Assembly: GCA_965224705.1 (NCBI GenBank)
Contig: OZ245056.1
Location: forward strand, 544,001 to 608,000
Source of the DNA: Spirochaetaceae bacterium
GTDB taxonomy: Bacteria > Spirochaetota > Spirochaetia > DSM-2461
Reading direction: 5' to 3'
DNA length: 64,000 nt
Shown here: piece by piece, positions 38,417-55,961 of the stretch
Position numbering within the stretch: the first letter of the stretch is position 1
Layout of the letters: every line of letters starts with the position of its first letter
Program-made: the position numbers and the translations under genes
The notes under the pieces: generated by a model
What the model was told of the DNA's origin: nothing
Seen by the model: the letters and a program-made list of their open reading frames with translations, nothing else
Databases searched by the model: none

Positions 38417-40006
38417 CTAAAATAGCTCCGTCTGGGTTTCATGTAAGGTAAGAAGTTTTTTAATCTTCCCTGGCTGAGCCCAATTCATCGTGCCTTCCAT
38501 TCTCAAAGACAACAAGTAGTCTTCGACCCATTTCTCAGACAATTCACTATGGATCGCTGCAGCCTGCTCTTGTGACCGACATGGTATGAAAGCCTGCAAA
38601 GATTGGTTAGCCTGCCATTCTCCACTGAAGATAACAGGATGGAATCTTTGCTTCCCATATGCCTGCCATACAATCTTTACCGAAAAGAAGTTATAGGGGC
38701 CGACACCAAGTAAAGCCCACCAGATTCCTTTGCGGATTGATGAATTTATCATTGCCCCTTTTCGATTCGATAGTTTCTTCTTAAACCGAGATAAGTAATC
38801 AAATAGATCAGGTACCTGGCAGATTTCATTCTCACTCAACGGTTTCCCATTTCTGTTGTATGGGAGCAAGACCCATTTTACTGGCTTGAAATCACCATCC
38901 TTGAAGTTCTCCTTGGTGATTAGAGGGTATACATACTTCTCCGGCAATTTATATTCATCGTTTACGATACAAGTTGACTCATCAACCTTTGTGTACGATG
39001 AGAAAAAGAAGACGTCATTCGCACCGCACGTATTAATACCCTGTCTAGGAGAAGACTCTTTAGCAGCACTGATCTTACGGATCTGATTTTGAAACCCTTT
39101 GGAATCAGATAGTATACTAAGAGGCGATTTGGGCCCAAGGAGAGGTTTCGAGAAGTAATCCTTCCAATTCTCGTCCTCAAGCACAGAGTATCTTATTGGA
39201 AAAACCGTTTTTTTGTTTCTCCTGAGGCCAAATAAACCGTACCGCGTTGATACGTTCTGGAATATCTCAGATTTATTGAAGTCAATTATTTTCTTAATCT
39301 GGTAGTCGACTCCGGAAATCGAGTATGTACGAAATTCTTCATTTGCTCCATCATTTAGGAATATTGATAAGGGTGTAAAGAATACTGCATCACCACCTTC
39401 TTCCAGACAATCCAGAACAGACTTGTTAATTACAAGTGCTGCAATGTCAATCCTCGCGCCACCAAGCAAGAGACTTTGTGCGTTATTTATCAAACCGTAT
39501 CTATGATAGTAGTCCTTCAGTTCTTCTTTATAGTTTTCCGGCAGGTCTACAAAATTTTGCCAGGGAGGATTTCCAAGGATAATGTCATAACGACGATCTT
39601 CGTACAGCATGAGATCAGAAAGAGCGAAATTATCGCTAAGGTCTATTCCATAGCAATTCTTGAATTTCTGAATTGCAGATTGATGGTATTCTTTGTTTTT
39701 CTCGCATCCATACAGATTGTAAATGGGGAGATAATTTATTTCGTATCCGCGTTCAAATCCTTCAGCAACAAATGATTCAAGAAGAGAGCCTTCTCCCATT
39801 GTAGGGTCGAAAACTGTCTTGCCGTTTAGCCAGGGTTCAAAAAGGTCGAACTCTCTTATTGCAAAGCGACCCCATTCAATAGGTGTAAAAACATCGCCAA
39901 TTTTAAGAGTGTTATCTAATAAATCGGAAGTTAGTGCAGTCATTTTTTCTTGAAGATTCTCAGATATTTCCTGGAAGTTCATACATTTCTCCAGAACAGA
40001 ACCCAA
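38417..40006 (-). CDS. Orphan amino-DNA methyltransferase (gamma class, Eco57I/TaqI-like)
   Basis: GDVFTP, VFDPTMGEGS, ILGNPPW and a TaqI-C-like C-terminus. Confidence 0.85.
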   Translation of the reverse strand: MGSVLEKCMNFQEISENLQEKMTALTSDLLDNTLKIGDVFTPIEWGRFAIREFDLFEPWLNGKTVFDPTMGEGSLLESFVAEGFERGYEINYLPIYNLYGCEKNKEYHQSAIQKFKNCYGIDLSDNFALSDLMLYEDRRYDIILGNPPWQNFVDLPENYKEELKDYYHRYGLINNAQSLLLGGARIDIAALVINKSVLDCLEEGGDAVFFTPLSIFLNDGANEEFRTYSISGVDYQIKKIIDFNKSEIFQNVSTRYGLFGLRRNKKTVFPIRYSVLEDENWKDYFSKPLLGPKSPLSILSDSKGFQNQIRKISAAKESSPRQGINTCGANDVFFFSSYTKVDESTCIVNDEYKLPEKYVYPLITKENFKDGDFKPVKWVLLPYNRNGKPLSENEICQVPDLFDYLSRFKKKLSNRKGAMINSSIRKGIWWALLGVGPYNFFSVKIVWQAYGKQRFHPVIFSGEWQANQSLQAFIPCRSQEQAAAIHSELSEKWVEDYLLSLRMEGTMNWAQPGKIKKLLTLHETQTELF

Positions 40007-42314: not shown

Positions 42315-42424
42315 TACAAATTGAATGAAAATCTCCCGGGTGAAAGATCAAATCAGGTAAAATTATGCCATTGCAATGTTGGATTCAGCTTGCATTCACA
42401 GCCTTCGAAGGTCATACTGAGAGG

Positions 42425-43744
42425 ATGAATAATCACAGAAACGCTGTCGAAAAATTCCTCCAGGAAGTCCATATGCATCCTGATACGGTGAATATGGAGA
42501 ATACTGTTGACCATATGCTGGAAGAGATGGCTCTTGGTCTCAATGGGAAACCATCTTCTCTGAAAATGCTCCCCACATACATTGAAACTGATACCGATAT
42601 TCCCCTGGAAAAACCAACAGTAGTTCTGGATGCTGGTGGAACGAATCTGCGCGTAGCACTTGTAACATTCAAAGAAGGGAAAAAACCAGTTATCGATGAT
42701 TATTCAAAGCATCCCATGCCTGGTTCCAGGGATTCCACAGTAGGTAGGGAGGAATTCTTTGATACTCTTGCAGCATTGGTAGAACCACTCATCTCAGGAG
42801 ATTCAAGTATAGGATTCTGTTTTTCCTATTCTACAGAAATATTTCCAGACAGGGATGGCCGATTGCTTCATTGGTCAAAAGAAATCAAAGCTCCTGATGT
42901 TGTTGGCCGTATGATTGGCTCAGATCTCAAAGATGCCCTCCGCAACAGAGGAATACAGGATGTACCAGACATTGTTATTCTTAATGATACCGTAGCGACT
43001 CTACTCACCGGTAAACTCTCCAATCCAACCCGTCCCTGGGGAGGATATGCAGGATTCATCCTTGGAACAGGTACCAATACCTGCTATGTGGAATCAAACT
43101 CAGCCATAAGGAAAGTCCCTGGTCTTAATCCTTCCGGGAAACAGATTATCAACTGTGAAACTGGAAATTACGCATACCCAAACAGGGGTGAGGCCGATTT
43201 AATGCTGGGTAGAACAACATCTGATACCAATGCATATCTACTTGAAAAAATGCTATCAGGCGGCTACTTTGGAGCTCTTGCTACTCAAAGTGCAAAACTT
43301 GCTGGCAGTAAAGGGCTGTTTTCCACCAGGGCTGTTCATTCACTGACCGAAATCGGCATGTTTTCAACAAAGGACGCTGATAATTACTGCCATAATCCTG
43401 CTGATACCAGGGACAATGCCATTGCCAGAATAATGAAAACTCATGCCAATGAATCCGACCGACAACGGTTGTGGTTTCTTTTCGATGCTTTGCTGGAGCG
43501 TGCTGCAAAACTGTCAGCAGCAAATATAGCAGCGTCCATCCTGAAAGGCCCCAGCGGAAGTGGTCCGCTGGAAGCAAGTTGTCTCACCATTGATGGAACA
43601 ACGTATTACTGGTATTACAGGTTTCAGCAGCGGGTGGAAAGTCATCTCCGGCCATGCCTCTCCAATAAGAACAAGTATTATGAAACAGTACGAGTTAATG
43701 ATGCTCCCCTGATTGGAGCTGCAGTAGCAGCCCTGACAAACTAA
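42425..43744 (+). CDS. Hexokinase (eukaryote-type hexokinase family)
   Basis: LKMLPTY, LDAGGTNLR, GFCFSY, LLHWSKE, LNDTVATL and ILGTGTNTCY. Confidence 0.93.
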   Translation: MNNHRNAVEKFLQEVHMHPDTVNMENTVDHMLEEMALGLNGKPSSLKMLPTYIETDTDIPLEKPTVVLDAGGTNLRVALVTFKEGKKPVIDDYSKHPMPGSRDSTVGREEFFDTLAALVEPLISGDSSIGFCFSYSTEIFPDRDGRLLHWSKEIKAPDVVGRMIGSDLKDALRNRGIQDVPDIVILNDTVATLLTGKLSNPTRPWGGYAGFILGTGTNTCYVESNSAIRKVPGLNPSGKQIINCETGNYAYPNRGEADLMLGRTTSDTNAYLLEKMLSGGYFGALATQSAKLAGSKGLFSTRAVHSLTEIGMFSTKDADNYCHNPADTRDNAIARIMKTHANESDRQRLWFLFDALLERAAKLSAANIAASILKGPSGSGPLEASCLTIDGTTYYWYYRFQQRVESHLRPCLSNKNKYYETVRVNDAPLIGAAVAALTN

Positions 43745-43754
43745 AACTCATTTC

Positions 43755-43827
43755 TCGGAATGAGAGGACTCGAACCTCCGATCTCCTGCTCCCAAAGCAG
43801 GTGCCCTGGCCGCTGGGCTACATTCCG
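43755..43827 (-). tRNA. tRNA-Pro(TGG), CCA not encoded
   Basis: CGGAATG acceptor stem, CCTGC-TTTGGGA-GCAGG anticodon arm and GGTTCGAGTCC T-arm. Confidence 0.96.
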
Positions 43828-44008: not shown

Positions 44009-44062
44009 GGAATTGATTTCATGATGAGCGGGCTCCAACCGATATTGTACTCAGGAGGAGTC

Positions 44063-44626
44063 ATGCCCACACTTGAACACGCTGAACACCTGATGAGGGA
44101 AGGAGCCTTTCAATCGGCCAAAGCAATCCTTTCAGAAATAATTTCCGAATATCCTGATGACTTGCGGGCAATATGCGATATAGGGATTGCATATACTGAA
44201 ACTGGGGAAAACCACAAAGCTATCAGAGCATTAGAGTTTTATATAAAGAATGATGAAACGAATACCTATGCCTGGGAAGCCCTGGGCTGTGCTCAGCTGA
44301 GGACCGGGAATCTGGATCAGGCTCGAAAAAGTCTGATGAAGGCAATTGAAGTGAAGCCTGAAAATTTTTCGGCTTTCCGTAATCTGGGAATACTGAAGAG
44401 TATGGAGGGATCTCATGAAGAAGGACTTACCTTTCTTCAGAAATCCATGCGTATCAATCCAGGTGATTATAGAACACTTTTTGCATTGAACTACAGCTTC
44501 AAAGACTCAGGGAAAAATGAGGAACGAAACAAAATTCTTGATCGCCTTGCAGAAATGGATCTGCCTGAAAATCTGCGGCAGGAAATTGCACTTATTCGGA
44601 TCAGAATCTCTTTGGAGTGGGAGTAA
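44063..44626 (+). CDS. Tetratricopeptide repeat protein
   Basis: AWEALGCAQLRTGNLDQARKSLMKAIEVKP-type repeats. RBS AGGAGGAG before ATG 44063. Confidence 0.85.
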   Translation: MPTLEHAEHLMREGAFQSAKAILSEIISEYPDDLRAICDIGIAYTETGENHKAIRALEFYIKNDETNTYAWEALGCAQLRTGNLDQARKSLMKAIEVKPENFSAFRNLGILKSMEGSHEEGLTFLQKSMRINPGDYRTLFALNYSFKDSGKNEERNKILDRLAEMDLPENLRQEIALIRIRISLEWE

Positions 44627-45040
44627 TAGAACAGATTCGGTACCTTAGCGTAGATATCCACAAAGATTTCCCTGTTGGAATTGAGAAAATGGCGGCTTAA
44701 TCATGAATAAACTGCACGAACTTATGAGGTCATCTGGAAAACAGTCTCAAGAAACTGACGGAGAGATTTTCACCTGCCTGCTGCAGGTCGATTGATACAG
44801 GGTAAGCATGTTGGCCATGCCGCAGCAGGAAAGACCAGACCAGGAACTGGAGAGCGGGTGTTCTGCGGCATATTTTGAAAGAGTTCTGATACAGTATTAC
44901 ATTGAGAAATAATCCGGGACTGCCTGCCAATCCCGAATTATAGAATGATGGTTACTCCTGGAAGTATTCATTTCGGCTCCATCCTGAACTCTTCATTTCA
45001 GCAGATTCCGAAAACAAGTTTCCAGAAGAGGTACCATGAA

Positions 45041-45226
45041 TTAGAAATCTTTGTCCTGTACAGTTTTCCGTTTTGCACTTTTTGCATTGTCAATCGCTTT
45101 GTCGCACATTTCACGAACCGCATTGGAGAGTGCTTCTATAACGGTTGCAGAGCACTTCATATCAGCTGTCGTCTTGATATAAGCTTTTACCTTGGAAGCA
45201 ACAACCAGATTTTCGTTTTCAGCCAT
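45041..45226 (-). CDS. Bacterial histone-fold protein (singlet)
   Basis: 61 aa, LVVASKVKAYIK...EALSNAVREMCDKAIDNAKSAKRKTVQDKDF. It has the histone RKTV..xD loop motif and RBS AAGGAG. Confidence 0.88.
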   Translation of the reverse strand: MAENENLVVASKVKAYIKTTADMKCSATVIEALSNAVREMCDKAIDNAKSAKRKTVQDKDF

Positions 45227-45332
45227 AATGACTCCTTCTATTGTGTATATTGATTATAGTATACTTGCTGCAGTTGATTGTGTCCTCCTCATTGCACTGG
45301 AATTGGACTAACTTTACTGAAATTCAGGATGA

Positions 45333-46523
45333 TTGATGAAAATACATGTACGAATAATGCTTTCAGCTGTTCTGCTTGGATCCTCCATCGCCTCAGGATG
45401 GGCAGGAAATATAAGTGCAAGAATGATCATTGCCGGGCCTGGCGATCCTCTATACACCTATTGGGGACACATAGGTTTAGCATTGAAGAACAACGATACA
45501 GGTGAAGATTTATTCTATGACTTTGGAAATTTTTCTTTTTATTCGGAAAATTTCTACGAAGACTTCATAAAAGGATACATGCCGTACCTGGCCGTTGTTT
45601 CACCAACGGACAGATTCATTGCCCAATCCATGTTGAAGAACATGGATTTAACAATGTATAACCTCAATCTGGGTCATGAAGAACTGGAAATGCTTGACAA
45701 AAAACTTCGGTGGTGGGTATTACCGGAAAACCGGGTATATCTCTATAATTATTTCACAAATAACTGTTCGACAATCATACGGGATATACTGAACGAAGTT
45801 CTTGACAATCAACTAAAAGATCAAACGATCTCTCTTAAAGACAAAAGTTTCCGATATTATGCACGAACTCTGTCCTATCAATCATTACCAGCAGAGATTA
45901 TGTTTCATTATCTTCTTGGTCCTTATACCGACAAAACTATCAATGGATGGGAATTGATGTTCCTGCCCTTTGCAGTCGCAGACTATGCAACCAGGTTGGA
46001 ATACACAGGCCAGGATGGAGTAATCCGAACATTGTCCGATGAAAAAACAATTCTCAAAAAAGCAATCCGTCCGCCAGTACCTGATAAACCCACGAAACTA
46101 TGGCCGTTGTTATTATGCGTAAGCTTGTTCATGTCAATCGTCTGGTTCCAGGCCTCAAACTTGAAATGGGGGGGGCTCATTCAACTGCCCATCGTGTTAA
46201 TCGTTGGCTTGCCAGGAGCAGCGATCGGTTTTTTCATGTTCTTCACCAATCATAATGCCGGCTATGGAAACATCAATTTCTGGTCAACCTTACCCACAGT
46301 CCTCTTATGCGTGATACCCCTCTTTGCCTCAAGGTGGAAATACCAGGAATCTGTTATAGCCTGGATCTGGACAATCAATGCAATTGGACTGATTTCATCC
46401 GTTTATTTGCGGTTAAGCGGTGAAGTTTATCAGGATGTCAGTGCGTTCTGGGCACTGTATGGTCCCATCACTCTGGCCGCATCGTATCCCGGCCTTCTTC
46501 TTAAGAGGCGCTTAGGATGGTAA
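45333..46523 (+). CDS. DUF4105 (Lnb-like) membrane protein
   Basis: GPGDPLYTYWGH, YDFGNF, YLYNYFTNNCST and C-terminal TM helices. Confidence 0.82.
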   Translation: MMKIHVRIMLSAVLLGSSIASGWAGNISARMIIAGPGDPLYTYWGHIGLALKNNDTGEDLFYDFGNFSFYSENFYEDFIKGYMPYLAVVSPTDRFIAQSMLKNMDLTMYNLNLGHEELEMLDKKLRWWVLPENRVYLYNYFTNNCSTIIRDILNEVLDNQLKDQTISLKDKSFRYYARTLSYQSLPAEIMFHYLLGPYTDKTINGWELMFLPFAVADYATRLEYTGQDGVIRTLSDEKTILKKAIRPPVPDKPTKLWPLLLCVSLFMSIVWFQASNLKWGGLIQLPIVLIVGLPGAAIGFFMFFTNHNAGYGNINFWSTLPTVLLCVIPLFASRWKYQESVIAWIWTINAIGLISSVYLRLSGEVYQDVSAFWALYGPITLAASYPGLLLKRRLGW

Positions 46524-49454
46524 GGGGATTTCCAGGGTGATTTTTGATTCGTTTAATGCCTGATTGACCTTACTGGCTTCCTGTAAATCCTCATCTCCAG
46601 CAATAACCGAAATTGAACGGCTGCCCCACGAATCAAGGAGGGCTTCTGCGGCTTTTCTCACATCCTCTGCCGTTGCGTTTAATTGTGTATCTCTGTTCAA
46701 CTGCCTCAATTCATCCGTTATGCCATAGAGTTTACGCTTAAAGGCTATCACCCCCCTCTCTTTTGGCTTAAAAGGTTTAAGTTCCCGGCCTGTTGAACCA
46801 ATTATTGCCATTTTTACTGTATCATCGTCGAGGTTCCCGGCCGCCCATTCCAATGATTCACGGAAGGCTGTGAGACTGGGTATAATAAGGGGATCCCTGT
46901 AAGTTGAAAAAGTAAAGGTTCCTTCAAGTCCCGATACAGAAGCAGAAGTGCCATAGGCCCCGCCCTTCATCCGTATATTCTCCCAGAGGTAGCCAGTCTT
47001 TAAAACATGAGCCAGGAGAACGGCCATGGCATGTTCTGGAGATCCAGTGCGGGGAGCTGGCAGGCTCAGGGCTGAATAAGAAACTGCCGAGCTGGTTGAT
47101 ATCGATTCGGCAACAGTTTCATGGCGAAAAAGTGGCGGCATTCTGGAAGGTGCGAGTGATCCAACAGGCAGGGAGGATACTCTTTCCAATGTCCTGTTAA
47201 GAATTGTTGAATCGGCGTCAAAATCAGATGTAACAGCGAGGGAAAGATTGGTCTGCTGCAGGATGGATTCCCTAATCCTCTTCAAGGCCCTGGAAGCAAT
47301 ACTGGCTCGCTCCTTATTCTGAGCGATTGATTGAAGAAACTGATATTGACTGATGCCATACCATAAATCCTCCCATGAAGAGCTTATTGAATGCTTTGCA
47401 CTTGCCCGCATTGACGCAAATGCATTGCCAGAGGGAATGATGGCAGAGCGATAATCATTACGGAGTTCTATTAACAGATCATCAACTCTCTTCAAATTAT
47501 CAAAATCTGCAGAATGAAGGATTTCCATCGTGATACCAAGGGCTTCATCCCACTGGCTGGAAAGGGCTTTCAGATGAAGAAACAATCGGAGGCTGATCCT
47601 GTTTCCGTTACTCTTGTGGATTGGTGAGGCCTCCAGCGAGCAATTCAGACCACCGATCCGCATTGCCAGTATGCGTGACACTTCGTTGTGCGGTAAACCC
47701 GGCAACCCTACATCAGTCAGAGCAAACCCGAATAAAGGCATCCAGGTTTGCAGTTCCGGGCTCAGGCCCTCAAGGTCAAAGGCCATTTCCAGGTAGGAAA
47801 TACCACTGGTCAGAGTTTCATGACTGTACCAATCTATCAAATCGTGTGTTCCAGATTCTAAAGGGATTTCAGCCACTTTTTTGGGGAGGTCTTCCGGAGA
47901 AAGAAAAGGGATTCGAGCAAGATCTTCAGGTTTGTCCGGAGTTTCCTGAAAAGATTTCAGGTTCTCACTGGATAGTTCCAGGGTCTTTAGATCTTCGGGG
48001 CTGAGTTTTCCATATACCTCTCTCAAGTGGATTCTATCTTCCTCTTCACGGCGTTCATTCAAACCTGGAGATGGGCTGAGCACAACCGTTGTACGATGCG
48101 AGTTATCGATAAGAGATTTTCTTATCAATTCTTCAAAATAGCTTTTTCCCTGATTTTCCCGGAGATTCTTCATTGGCCGCTCAAAGGACATGCTTTCCCC
48201 AGGAGGCTTATCATGCAGCCAGCCTCTGACAGCCCGCTGCATTAAGCGAAGTCCGAAGGGCATACTGCCGCTGATTTCCCGAAAACGGAATTCGACGCTC
48301 CTCAAAGCTCCTTCGACAAGATCATCATCCAGTTTACGAGAAGATTTCTCCAGGGAATCAAAGATGACTTTCTCTATCTCGACATCCTTTCCCGGATCGG
48401 TTCCCCTGAGAGCAACTGTGAAAATCATCTGTCGAAGACTGGTATCTAAACCGCTGATGGGAGAAAGATCTTCTCCCAGGGCACTGTCAATCAGGGCCTG
48501 TTGTAGAGGAGAACCGCTGTGACCCAGCAGGATATACGATAGAACCTGTGCGTCAAGAAACTGTTTCAAATCTGTCGTATCACCCCAGAGCCAATTCTGG
48601 CTGACTATGGATTTACCCTGAACTCTCTCATCGGGACTACAGGGCCAATACCCGGTCATACGCTTCGGTTCAGGCCAGGGACTCTGCATGGAGATCTGTG
48701 ATGCAATCTTCCGGTACTGGAATTTACTGAGGTATTCGGAGTCCAATACGGTCAACACCTCTTCCAGATTGTGATTTCCATATAGAAATATTCGTGAATT
48801 TGAGGGTTGGTAATAAGTTTCATGGAAGTTAATAAAGCTTTCATAAGTGAGTTCAGGGATGTGTTTCGGAGCACCGCCGGAATCCCATCTATAAGGTGTA
48901 TCAGGAAGAATCGACCTCACAGTTAAATCCTCCGCTACAGATTCAGGAGATGAGTAGCTGCCCTTCATTTCATTAAGAACAATGCCGGAACGTACCAACC
49001 AGCCATTTTTTTCAATTTCCAGTCTATGCCCCTCCTGCTCAAAGGCTTCCTTTTTAAGATTTGGAAAGAAAACAGCATCTCCATAGACACGTAAGAGATT
49101 GAAAAAATCAGCCTTGACAGTACTTGATGCGGGGTAAACCGTTTTATCCGGGTAAGTCATGGCATTGAGGAATGTGTGAGTACTGCCCTTGAGAAGAACC
49201 AGGAAGGGATCCTTTAGGGGGTATCGCTGCGATCCGCATAGAACGGCATGCTCCATTATATGAGGGACACCTGTATGGTCAAAAGGTGGAGTGCGGAAGA
49301 TGAATGCGAAAAGATTTTCTTCATCGTCGACGTTGACTTTGTATATTTCCGCACCTGTCTGGATATGCCGGAGATGAATACCGTCAGCCTGATATTCGGC
49401 GAGTGAATCTATGGAAATAGTTTCAAATCCCGGGAAACTGAAGTCTTTTTTCAT
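46512..49454 (-). CDS. M16C insulinase-family (presequence protease-like) peptidase
   Basis: HIMEH, FLNAMTYPDKTVYP and IRMKGGAYG. Confidence 0.94.
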   Translation of the reverse strand: MKKDFSFPGFETISIDSLAEYQADGIHLRHIQTGAEIYKVNVDDEENLFAFIFRTPPFDHTGVPHIMEHAVLCGSQRYPLKDPFLVLLKGSTHTFLNAMTYPDKTVYPASSTVKADFFNLLRVYGDAVFFPNLKKEAFEQEGHRLEIEKNGWLVRSGIVLNEMKGSYSSPESVAEDLTVRSILPDTPYRWDSGGAPKHIPELTYESFINFHETYYQPSNSRIFLYGNHNLEEVLTVLDSEYLSKFQYRKIASQISMQSPWPEPKRMTGYWPCSPDERVQGKSIVSQNWLWGDTTDLKQFLDAQVLSYILLGHSGSPLQQALIDSALGEDLSPISGLDTSLRQMIFTVALRGTDPGKDVEIEKVIFDSLEKSSRKLDDDLVEGALRSVEFRFREISGSMPFGLRLMQRAVRGWLHDKPPGESMSFERPMKNLRENQGKSYFEELIRKSLIDNSHRTTVVLSPSPGLNERREEEDRIHLREVYGKLSPEDLKTLELSSENLKSFQETPDKPEDLARIPFLSPEDLPKKVAEIPLESGTHDLIDWYSHETLTSGISYLEMAFDLEGLSPELQTWMPLFGFALTDVGLPGLPHNEVSRILAMRIGGLNCSLEASPIHKSNGNRISLRLFLHLKALSSQWDEALGITMEILHSADFDNLKRVDDLLIELRNDYRSAIIPSGNAFASMRASAKHSISSSWEDLWYGISQYQFLQSIAQNKERASIASRALKRIRESILQQTNLSLAVTSDFDADSTILNRTLERVSSLPVGSLAPSRMPPLFRHETVAESISTSSAVSYSALSLPAPRTGSPEHAMAVLLAHVLKTGYLWENIRMKGGAYGTSASVSGLEGTFTFSTYRDPLIIPSLTAFRESLEWAAGNLDDDTVKMAIIGSTGRELKPFKPKERGVIAFKRKLYGITDELRQLNRDTQLNATAEDVRKAAEALLDSWGSRSISVIAGDEDLQEASKVNQALNESKITLEIPLPS

Positions 49455-50070: not shown

Positions 50071-50120
50071 CTCCCCTTTCTATGAATTTCAATTCAATAA
50101 CCTGAATCAAAAAATGCCAG

Positions 50121-50282
50121 GAGTCTGTCGGATTTTAAGGCTTCGAGGCGATTTTCGATAATTTCTTCCTGATGCAAGGCGACAAAAACTTAAGCGTAGC
50201 TGGGCTACGTGGGTATTCTGGCAACGCCGCAGCAGGGAAAAAGGGCAAAAATCGATCCGTGAGACGTAAATCCGACAGACTC
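50121..50282 (-). mobile_element. MITE family A, 162 bp
   Basis: GAGTCTGTCGGATTT...AAATCCGACAGACTC with flanks CCAG/CTGG. Confidence 0.9.
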
Positions 50283-50292
50283 CTGGAACAGT

Positions 50293-55660: not shown

Positions 55661-55746
55661 GAAATTCCTTTCGATTAAGATACCCGTATACTCCTGATCA
55701 CTCCAGTTCACAACCCGCATATTGGGCTTTTTAACCGGTTCTCAAG

Positions 55747-55908
55747 GAGTCTGTCGGACTCTAAGACTTCGAGGCGATTTTTGATGATTTTTTCCTGATG
55801 CAAGGCGACAAAAACTTAAGCGTAGCTGGGCTACGCGAGTATTTTGGCAACGCCGCAGCAGGGAAAAAGGGCAAAAATCGAGCCGTGAGGCGGAAGTCCG
55901 ACAGACTC
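55747..55908 (-). mobile_element. MITE family A, 162 bp
   Basis: GAGTCTGTCGGACT...AGTCCGACAGACTC with 4-bp duplication CAAG. Confidence 0.9.
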
Positions 55909-55961
55909 CAAGTATACAGGATACATGGCTAATGCTATGATTCTATAGCAAGAGGCACTTA

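Follow-up and report, generated by a model that had tools for sequence, protein, structure and literature searches.

The type member of the bacterial dimer α3 histones is HBb (Bd0055) of Bdellovibrio bacteriovorus (PDB 8FVX, 8FW7, 8CMP, 9EZZ and 9F0E). According to the available text of PMC11390915, this class was defined in print by clustering, α3-truncated histones possess an α3 of three to four residues together with a shortened α2, and bacterial dimer histones occur mainly in a set of taxa that includes Spirochaetia. Two groups disagree on the action of HBb: in the accessible parts of the papers, bending of DNA (PMC11317129, PMC11390915) stands against edge-on coating (PMC10627809). HLp of Leptospira perolatii (PDB 9QT0-9QT2), described in the text available of PMC12701072 as only the second characterized bacterial histone, is, like LA_2458 of L. 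interrogans, a face-to-face histone; its stable tetramer is held together by contacts of R49, S52 and N53 with F63, T61 and R55 and wraps about 60 bp. The archaeal face-to-face histone HTkC of Thermococcus kodakarensis (PDB 9F2C) requires R45 for its tetramer. Without the matching arginine it turns into an HBb-like dimeric bender, and a lysine at this key position may support weaker tetramers, as stated in the accessible part of the preprint (bioRxiv 10.64898/2025.12.06.692711).

Here we analyzed a histone gene in a 64,000-nucleotide window of a Spirochaetaceae genome (contig OZ245056.1, positions 544,001 to 608,000). The coordinates given for it in a first-pass annotation were exact, and the strand, which had been left unstated, is minus. 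The gene and the surrounding features are listed in Table 1. The Shine-Dalgarno (SD) sequence agrees with the good ribosome binding site claimed earlier, and AGGAG or AGGGG is found 5-10 nt ahead of the start codon in all 20 fetched family loci. These loci derive from 20 of the 25 family genomes in the single-protein search, the own genome included, and represent related rather than independent sequences. The protein had been called basic, which holds for the sign of its net charge; the charge itself is mild, 11 K/R against 9 D/E giving +2 and a pI of 8.64.

Table 1. Coordinates of the histone gene, its signals and its surroundings in the window.
Feature	Position	Strand	Basis or remark
Convergent neighbour, TPR protein	44021..44626	+	414 nt away
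Non-coding stretch past the histone stop, possible long 3′ UTR	44677..45040	-	RNA-run contigs; strand and ends not readable from these
Singlet α3-truncated histone CDS (HBb/bacterial-dimer type)	45041..45226	-	Complete ORF of 61 aa, ATG at 45226, stop ending at 45041; Pfam; PDB alignment; AlphaFold2 model
Shine-Dalgarno AAGGAG	45232..45237	-	5 nt before ATG; equivalent site in 20/20 family loci
Two overlapping predicted σ70-type -10 boxes	45253..45263	-	TATACT 45263-45258, TATAAT 45258-45253
Possible -35 box AGGACA	45281..45286	-	Weak match (9 of 12); 17 nt from TATACT
Divergent neighbour, Lnb-like membrane protein (Lnb_N + 5TMH_Lnb)	45333..46523	+	106 nt away

The two predicted -10 boxes lie 26-37 nt upstream of the ATG, with the exact TATAAT at 26 nt; transcription is predicted to start near 45245-45250. 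An exact TATAAT 15-70 nt upstream of the start codon was present in 15 of the 20 family loci and a five-of-six match in the other five, compared to frequencies of 2.9% for the exact hexamer and 27.6% for at least five of six matches in a control set drawn from the own genome (1,964 long ORFs). A promoter scan alone performed no better than shuffled sequences (5 sites vs 4.5 ± 2.2). A G-rich hexamer similar to the possible -35 box occurs at the same spacing in several loci of the same genus. Downstream of this histone copy an intrinsic terminator could not be identified, the fold there reaching a z-score of -1.9; many relatives carry a strong hairpin downstream of the gene. Codon bias was dropped as a proxy for high expression: the histone gene ranks at the 72nd percentile, and the value is uninformative because the 23 ribosomal genes (range 40-96) barely differ from the genome.

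Comparison of the family loci revealed a fixed gene arrangement. The Lnb-like gene is located upstream and in opposite orientation in 20 of 20 loci, and the TPR gene downstream, opposite and within 1.5 kb in 14 of 20, one of the loci comprising just 19 nt of downstream DNA. Both genes are thus conserved position markers of the histone locus within the family; neither was found beside the fetched, more distant histone homologues. As both neighbours are encoded on the opposite strand, the histone gene is not co-transcribed with them and forms its own transcription unit. To this extent the initial description as a separate unit among core genes was correct, but the adjacent genes are conserved in the family and do not belong to the universal core, while rpsU, an rlmH-like gene and recJ are found 3-6 kb from the histone gene.

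Several other elements of the window deserve mention. A presequence-protease-like M16C metallopeptidase of 980 aa is encoded at 46512-49454 on the minus strand and is also present near the histone locus of several relatives. A hexokinase gene with Pfam matches to Hexokinase_1 and Hexokinase_2, a family best known from eukaryotes, occupies 42365-43744 of the plus strand and is followed by a tRNA-Pro(TGG) on the minus strand (43755-43827). An N6-adenine DNA methyltransferase of 529 aa with an Eco57I-like domain is encoded at 38417-40006 (minus strand). A dispersed element of approx. 165 nt (50119-50284), situated between rpsU and an M23 peptidase gene, exhibits long terminal inverted repeats and folds into a rod; a second copy lies near 55745-55909. 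The own genome contains 100 near-full-length matches, with 88-93% identity among the other copies that were scored, and comparison with Rfam gave no match. This repeat looks like an element of the MITE/ERIC type.

Contigs from metatranscriptome runs were inspected for coverage of the locus. Exact-match contigs over the histone gene were present in four of four runs, all from one study labelled as mollusc metagenome, the identical contigs spanning 45044-45228, 44854-45226, 45042-45233 and 45034-45184. Further contigs extended from the 3′ end of the gene down to about 44680. The runs had been picked with this very stretch, and assembled contigs show neither strand nor level, so that the contigs fit transcription of the histone gene but could also stem from DNA carry-over. 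A ranking of the histone gene against its neighbours by RNA depth was rejected as invalid on contigs, uncovered neighbours being uninformative. Summed contig depth in these runs peaked by a wide margin at the 165-nt repeat, which is expected for a multi-copy element.

The 414-nt gap between the histone and TPR genes (44627-45040) was searched for a known RNA and for a decayed gene. Both were rejected, as Rfam gave no match at E≤5 and tblastn with the downstream genes of five relatives no match, the downstream gene of the nearest relative producing just short weak ones. Several relatives carry another gene in place of the gap; its product by eye resembles pentapeptide-repeat proteins, and no counterpart was detected in the own genome. 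Part of another short dispersed repeat, with eight further partial matches, also lies in the gap (about 44732-44802).

The histone gene is under purifying selection. Compared to the nearest relative it displays eight synonymous and two non-synonymous differences (dN/dS 0.063); the median pN/pS over 190 pairs was 0.16 and the median dN/dS over the 86 pairs with unsaturated dS was 0.05. A single-protein search recovered the histone in 24 of 24 genomes of the same family and in 2 of 16 genomes of other families. An alignment-based query detected the gene in all 26 family genomes, a sample overlapping with the 24, and in 68 of 301 genomes of the class. In a search of the phylum 69 of 301 genomes were positive, 50 of which belong to one family, and the 13 loci fetched from that family encode a Leptospira-type sequence. 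The closest named records are all from spirochaetes. The pattern is one of vertical inheritance within the family and patchy presence outside of it. Neither protein nor family searches of the own genome (3.0 Mb) detected another histone, nor was there a second PF00808 match, so that the gene is single-copy.

Some of the genomes and proteins recovered depart from the single-copy, singlet form. In one of the genomes searched (G451) an intact copy is accompanied by a second copy in two pieces on one contig, and another genome (G001) shows a weak second histone match inside a 322-codon frame. Many top-scoring cluster representatives (P0042-P0190) are longer and contain either two histone-fold stretches per chain (126-274 aa) or N-terminal extensions; most domains of these proteins are devoid of the face-to-face Arg and Asn. 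Tandem HBb-like doublets may therefore be more common than papers centred on singlets suggest. One incomplete sequence (L089) was excluded from trees and counts, two frameshifted rows (P0033 and P0036) are part of alignment A1 and absent from A2, and duplicates were collapsed prior to tree calculation.

To assign the protein, sequence, profile and model comparisons were combined. The Pfam profile PF00808 matched with 22.6 bits at a cut-off of 21.4. Sequence search against the PDB returned HBb (E = 4e-9), HLp (4e-7) and HTkC (7e-4), and the family profile retrieved them in the same order (1e-23, 1e-15 and 2e-11). A first AlphaFold2 model, calculated from 39 sequences, was of low quality, with a pLDDT of 81 and an rmsd to HBb of about 4.9 Å, and gave no Foldseek match at E≤0.001, HBb still being ranked first. 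The second model, based on 89 sequences, reached a pLDDT of 89 and superimposed on HBb with 0.6 Å (TM 0.86-0.90), compared to 1.1-1.3 Å for HLp and HTkC and 2.8 Å (TM 0.62) for the nucleosomal HPhA. VIA Z-scores were 9.0-9.1 for HBb, 8.1-8.3 for HLp, 7.9 for HTkC and about 6 for HPhA, with a Z of 9.1 and an rmsd of 0.7 Å over 58 residues to 8FVX; the scores of HBb and HLp lie within 1 of each other and are regarded as tied. DSSP assigned α1 to residues 10-21, α2 to residues 27-50 and a one-turn α3 to residues 58-60.

The translation contains the histone motifs S11-K12 and R53-K54-T55 and the RD clamp R53/D60, which together with T55 makes up the RxTxxxxD motif. S11, K12, T55 and D60 occur in 89 of 89 aligned rows and R53 in 86. 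The alignment to HBb is ungapped, whereas nucleosomal histones require a gap. Profile, PDB matches and model together identify the protein as an α3-truncated singlet histone as defined in the available text of PMC11390915. The protein does not show the traits of archaeal nucleosomal histones (long α2, three-turn α3, tetramer His), having the one-turn α3 and Ser50 at the His position, which corresponds to A48 of HBb. Nor does it represent a doublet/DUF1931, ZZ or Rab-GTPase-fused histone, as it consists of a single fold with its own SD sequence and its frame spans just 70 codons from stop to stop. The first-pass annotation, made from the letters alone, had proposed a three-helix histone fold with an RKTV...D ending and a likeness to the Bd0055 and Leptospira histones, and had named structure prediction as a check. 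Its observation is confirmed and its interpretation supported by the order of matches and the predicted fold, the third helix being a single turn.

Ten HBb residues have been named as making the most DNA contacts (PMC11317129, available text). Seven of them are identical in the query (S11, K12, K14, K18, S26, K54 and T55). Of the other three, R57 is replaced by lysine (K59), N22 by lysine (K24) and T8 by alanine. Residues S11, K12, K14, K24, S26, K54, T55 and D60 are invariant in all 20 family loci. The auxiliary salt bridge residue D49 of HBb is an alanine in the query and in 15 of the 20 loci.

Taken together, we consider it likely that the gene, monocistronic and vertically inherited, encodes a dimeric histone of the HBb/Bd0055 class, which bends DNA alongside an HU/IHF-family protein. 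Points that speak against this reading are the small net charge, the replaced D49, the tied VIA scores and the low quality of the first model. By analogy to HBb, two chains would associate head-to-tail through α2. The dimer would grip the DNA backbone at the minor groove without sequence preference via two L1-L2 sites, each probably formed by K24 and S26 with K54, T55 and K59 and held by the R53-D60 clamp, while the α1 pair of S11, K12, K14 and K18 may add to the grip. Free dimers would then bend and compact DNA, forming neither nucleosomes nor a face-to-face tetramer, and would act beside, not instead of, the HU/IHF-family protein.

The same dimer might instead work mainly edge-on as a nucleohistone filament, coating straight DNA through one L1-L2 interface and shielding rather than bending it. 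This mode was observed for Bd0055 in the first Bd0055-DNA crystal (PMC10627809, accessible part), and in the query both the L1-L2 motif and an HBb-like acidic segment at the N-terminus are retained. By sequence, bending and edge-on coating look alike and cannot be told apart. However, the later crystal, tethered-particle and simulation data on HBb favour bending by single dimers (PMC11317129 and PMC11390915, as far as their available text goes), and the filaments lack an in vivo demonstration in the text available of PMC10627809. We therefore regard edge-on coating as the main mode of the query as unlikely.

The bending histone would not be the only nucleoid protein of its host. The own genome encodes one HU/IHF-family, one YbaB/EbfC-family and one ferritin/Dps-family protein, and an HU/IHF-family gene exists in 26 of 26 histone-bearing relatives. 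It is located about 135 kb from the histone gene in the own genome; in three relatives (G017, G018 and G022) the distance is about 5.5-6 kb on the same contig and strand. Co-occurrence of histone and HU/IHF is also the situation in Bdellovibrio, whereas two Leptospira species were reported to be devoid of HU and Dps (PMC12701072, accessible text). Histone-based chromatin, as suggested initially for this lineage, is plausible, but the presence of an HU/IHF-family protein makes a histone among nucleoid proteins the more appropriate description.

The same set of genes raises the question whether the histone is only a minor or specialized DNA-binding factor, of low abundance or confined to one growth stage, with HU/IHF and YbaB/EbfC doing most of the packaging. 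The weak net charge would suit such a role, as would the distribution in just 68 of the 301 genomes of the class, which can thus live without it. On the other hand, a consensus -10 box and a strong SD sequence are kept across the family, no family genome searched has lost the gene, and the characterized singlets are abundant both in Bdellovibrio, where HU/IHF is also present, and in Leptospira. A minor role consequently appears quite improbable, and a regular nucleoid component bending DNA remains our preferred reading.

It is equally improbable, in our estimate, that the family histone acts in a third way, intermediate between those of HBb and HLp, namely as a dimer that tetramerizes weakly or only on DNA and is perhaps tuned by cysteines. 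This reading would draw on the exact C-terminus of face-to-face histones (18 of 20 family loci) and the HLp-like α1, combined with loss of the interface Arg (Lys in 3 of 20). Two cysteines are invariant in the family, C25 in the DNA-contacting L1 and C41 in α2. Cys25 was considered as a family-specific novelty and rejected, since several face-to-face sequences have a cysteine at this position, and Cys41 is also found in HBb. If this mode were true, both a dimer/tetramer switch and a division of labour between histone and HU would become testable in cultured carriers.

Whether the protein forms a dimer or a face-to-face tetramer was addressed at the positions of the HLp interface. HLp R49, which like R45 of HTkC pairs with the C-terminal carboxylate of the facing dimer, and N53, located at the dimer-dimer dyad, correspond to N47 and A51 of the query. 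Across the 20 family loci, position 47 is never arginine and three times lysine, and position 51 is Ala, Gly or Asp throughout. Among 73 relatives of the Leptospira-type histone, 69 carry both Arg and Asn, the Asn being the weaker criterion because HTkC also lacks it in the alignment. The residues of the dimer class K54, K12, K14 and K18 are present. A dimer profile gave the query 103.6 bits and a face-to-face profile 66.5 bits, the dimer profile being preferred by 58 of 58 group members. There is some circularity in this comparison, because similarity to the query was the basis on which the dimer rows had been collected. HBb was the best PDB match by sequence, profile and Foldseek.

Phylogenetic analysis, which had been recommended as a check, placed the query outside the face-to-face clade and among dimer-type rows. 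The face-to-face set split off with support of 100/99, and of 100/100 after removal of the diagnostic columns, in unrooted trees of 79 rows and just 62 and 46 columns, respectively, which included Bdellovibrionota dimer-type rows and were calculated without HBb and archaeal sequences. Trees from all columns positioned the Spirochaetia group between the two sets. This intermediate placement was discarded as not robust, since it was lost in a control tree without the label-defining columns and the α1 stretch shared by the search words, where the group formed its own clade (98/90) among dimer-type rows. Common spirochaete ancestry with the Leptospira histone was likewise considered, as the Leptospira-type rows, when just two of them were included, were placed within the Spirochaetia group with a long branch; when 39 face-to-face rows were used, they left the group. 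A forced Spirochaetia plus Leptospira clade was 30.6 lnL units worse with a p-AU of 0.066 and is neither rejected nor supported.

These residues and trees are in favour of the dimer class, to which the query most likely belongs, an assignment built on residues and clustering. A face-to-face tetramer, perhaps a weak one, wrapping about 60 bp like Leptospira HLp could be argued from an α1 that is identical to HLp over nine residues, from the lysine at the key Arg position in three family loci, and from a chain end one residue past the clamp Asp, which 18 of 20 family loci share with 68 of 73 face-to-face relatives but with only 17 of 47 other dimer-type rows. Given the Asn and Ala at the two interface positions of the query, the absence of Arg from all family loci, the profile scores and the tree position, we judge such a tetramer to be very unlikely. 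That the histone ORF is spurious, or that the overlapping 102-codon plus-strand ORF (44945-45253), in register with the histone gene and open across it in the own genome, is the real gene, was refuted by comparative data and is virtually out of the question: the plus-strand frame has no Pfam match and is interrupted by stops in eight of the 20 family loci. The minus-strand frame, in contrast, stays open in every one of them and is under purifying selection.

Relatives of the query have been catalogued before. Table S1 of PMC10627809 lists, in its available part, at least 11 spirochaete rows; among the matches listed there, the query sequence itself is absent, and the accessible text of that paper holds no characterization of these orthologues. 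Two of them, OQX28748.1 and VDA99093.1, are 85% and 77% identical to the query and have the same length and motif set, and singlets of this type share the Lnb-like neighbour in named records (L041 and L026). The orthologue names tried gave no match in the supplementary files of PMC11390915 that were available. Public databases already label several orthologues as histone-like. Orthologues, some of them still annotated as hypothetical, exist in the cultured, free-living species Oceanispirochaeta crateris (QEN09792.1, with Lys at the face-to-face interface position), Thiospirochaeta perfilievii (QEN05566.1) and Spirochaeta isovalerica (MBB6482557.1). A literature search, which did not extend to subscription journals, did not turn up any experimental work on a Spirochaetia histone. 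The query is thus an ordinary addition to a catalogued histone class and not a discovery. It extends a class with a single characterized protein, HBb, by a histone that all searched family genomes have retained, the locus and promoter being conserved and an HU/IHF-family gene accompanying it in the genome in each case. As cultured species carry orthologues, one of them with Lys at the interface, the generality of the HBb mechanism can be tested.

HBb is the closest of the known systems. It is 46% identical to the query without gaps over 56 residues, and the model lies within the above-mentioned 0.6 Å of its crystal chains. Both proteins have the SK motif, the RKT motif, the RD clamp, a short α2 and a one-turn α3, and both are devoid of the face-to-face Arg and Asn and of the archaeal tetramer His. 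In contrast, the Asn-Thr in L1 of HBb is Lys-Cys in the query, D49 and T8 are both alanine, and the chain of HBb is a few residues longer, while that of the query stops directly after α3. HBb also stems from Bdellovibrio and the query from a spirochaete, its function being deduced. HTkC shares the SK and RKT motifs and the fold (1.2-1.3 Å) at 31-32% identity, but the query has Asn47 in place of the arginine needed for the tetramer. HLp, from the same phylum, resembles the query in the α3-truncated fold (1.1-1.3 Å), the nearly identical α1 and the exact C-terminus. It differs in that the query has N47 and A51 at the tetramer positions, keeps the Lys of RKT, possesses an L1 longer by one residue and lies outside the face-to-face clade. 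With dimer-type and tetramer-type histones in one phylum, it can be tested side by side whether the behaviour of HBb is general.
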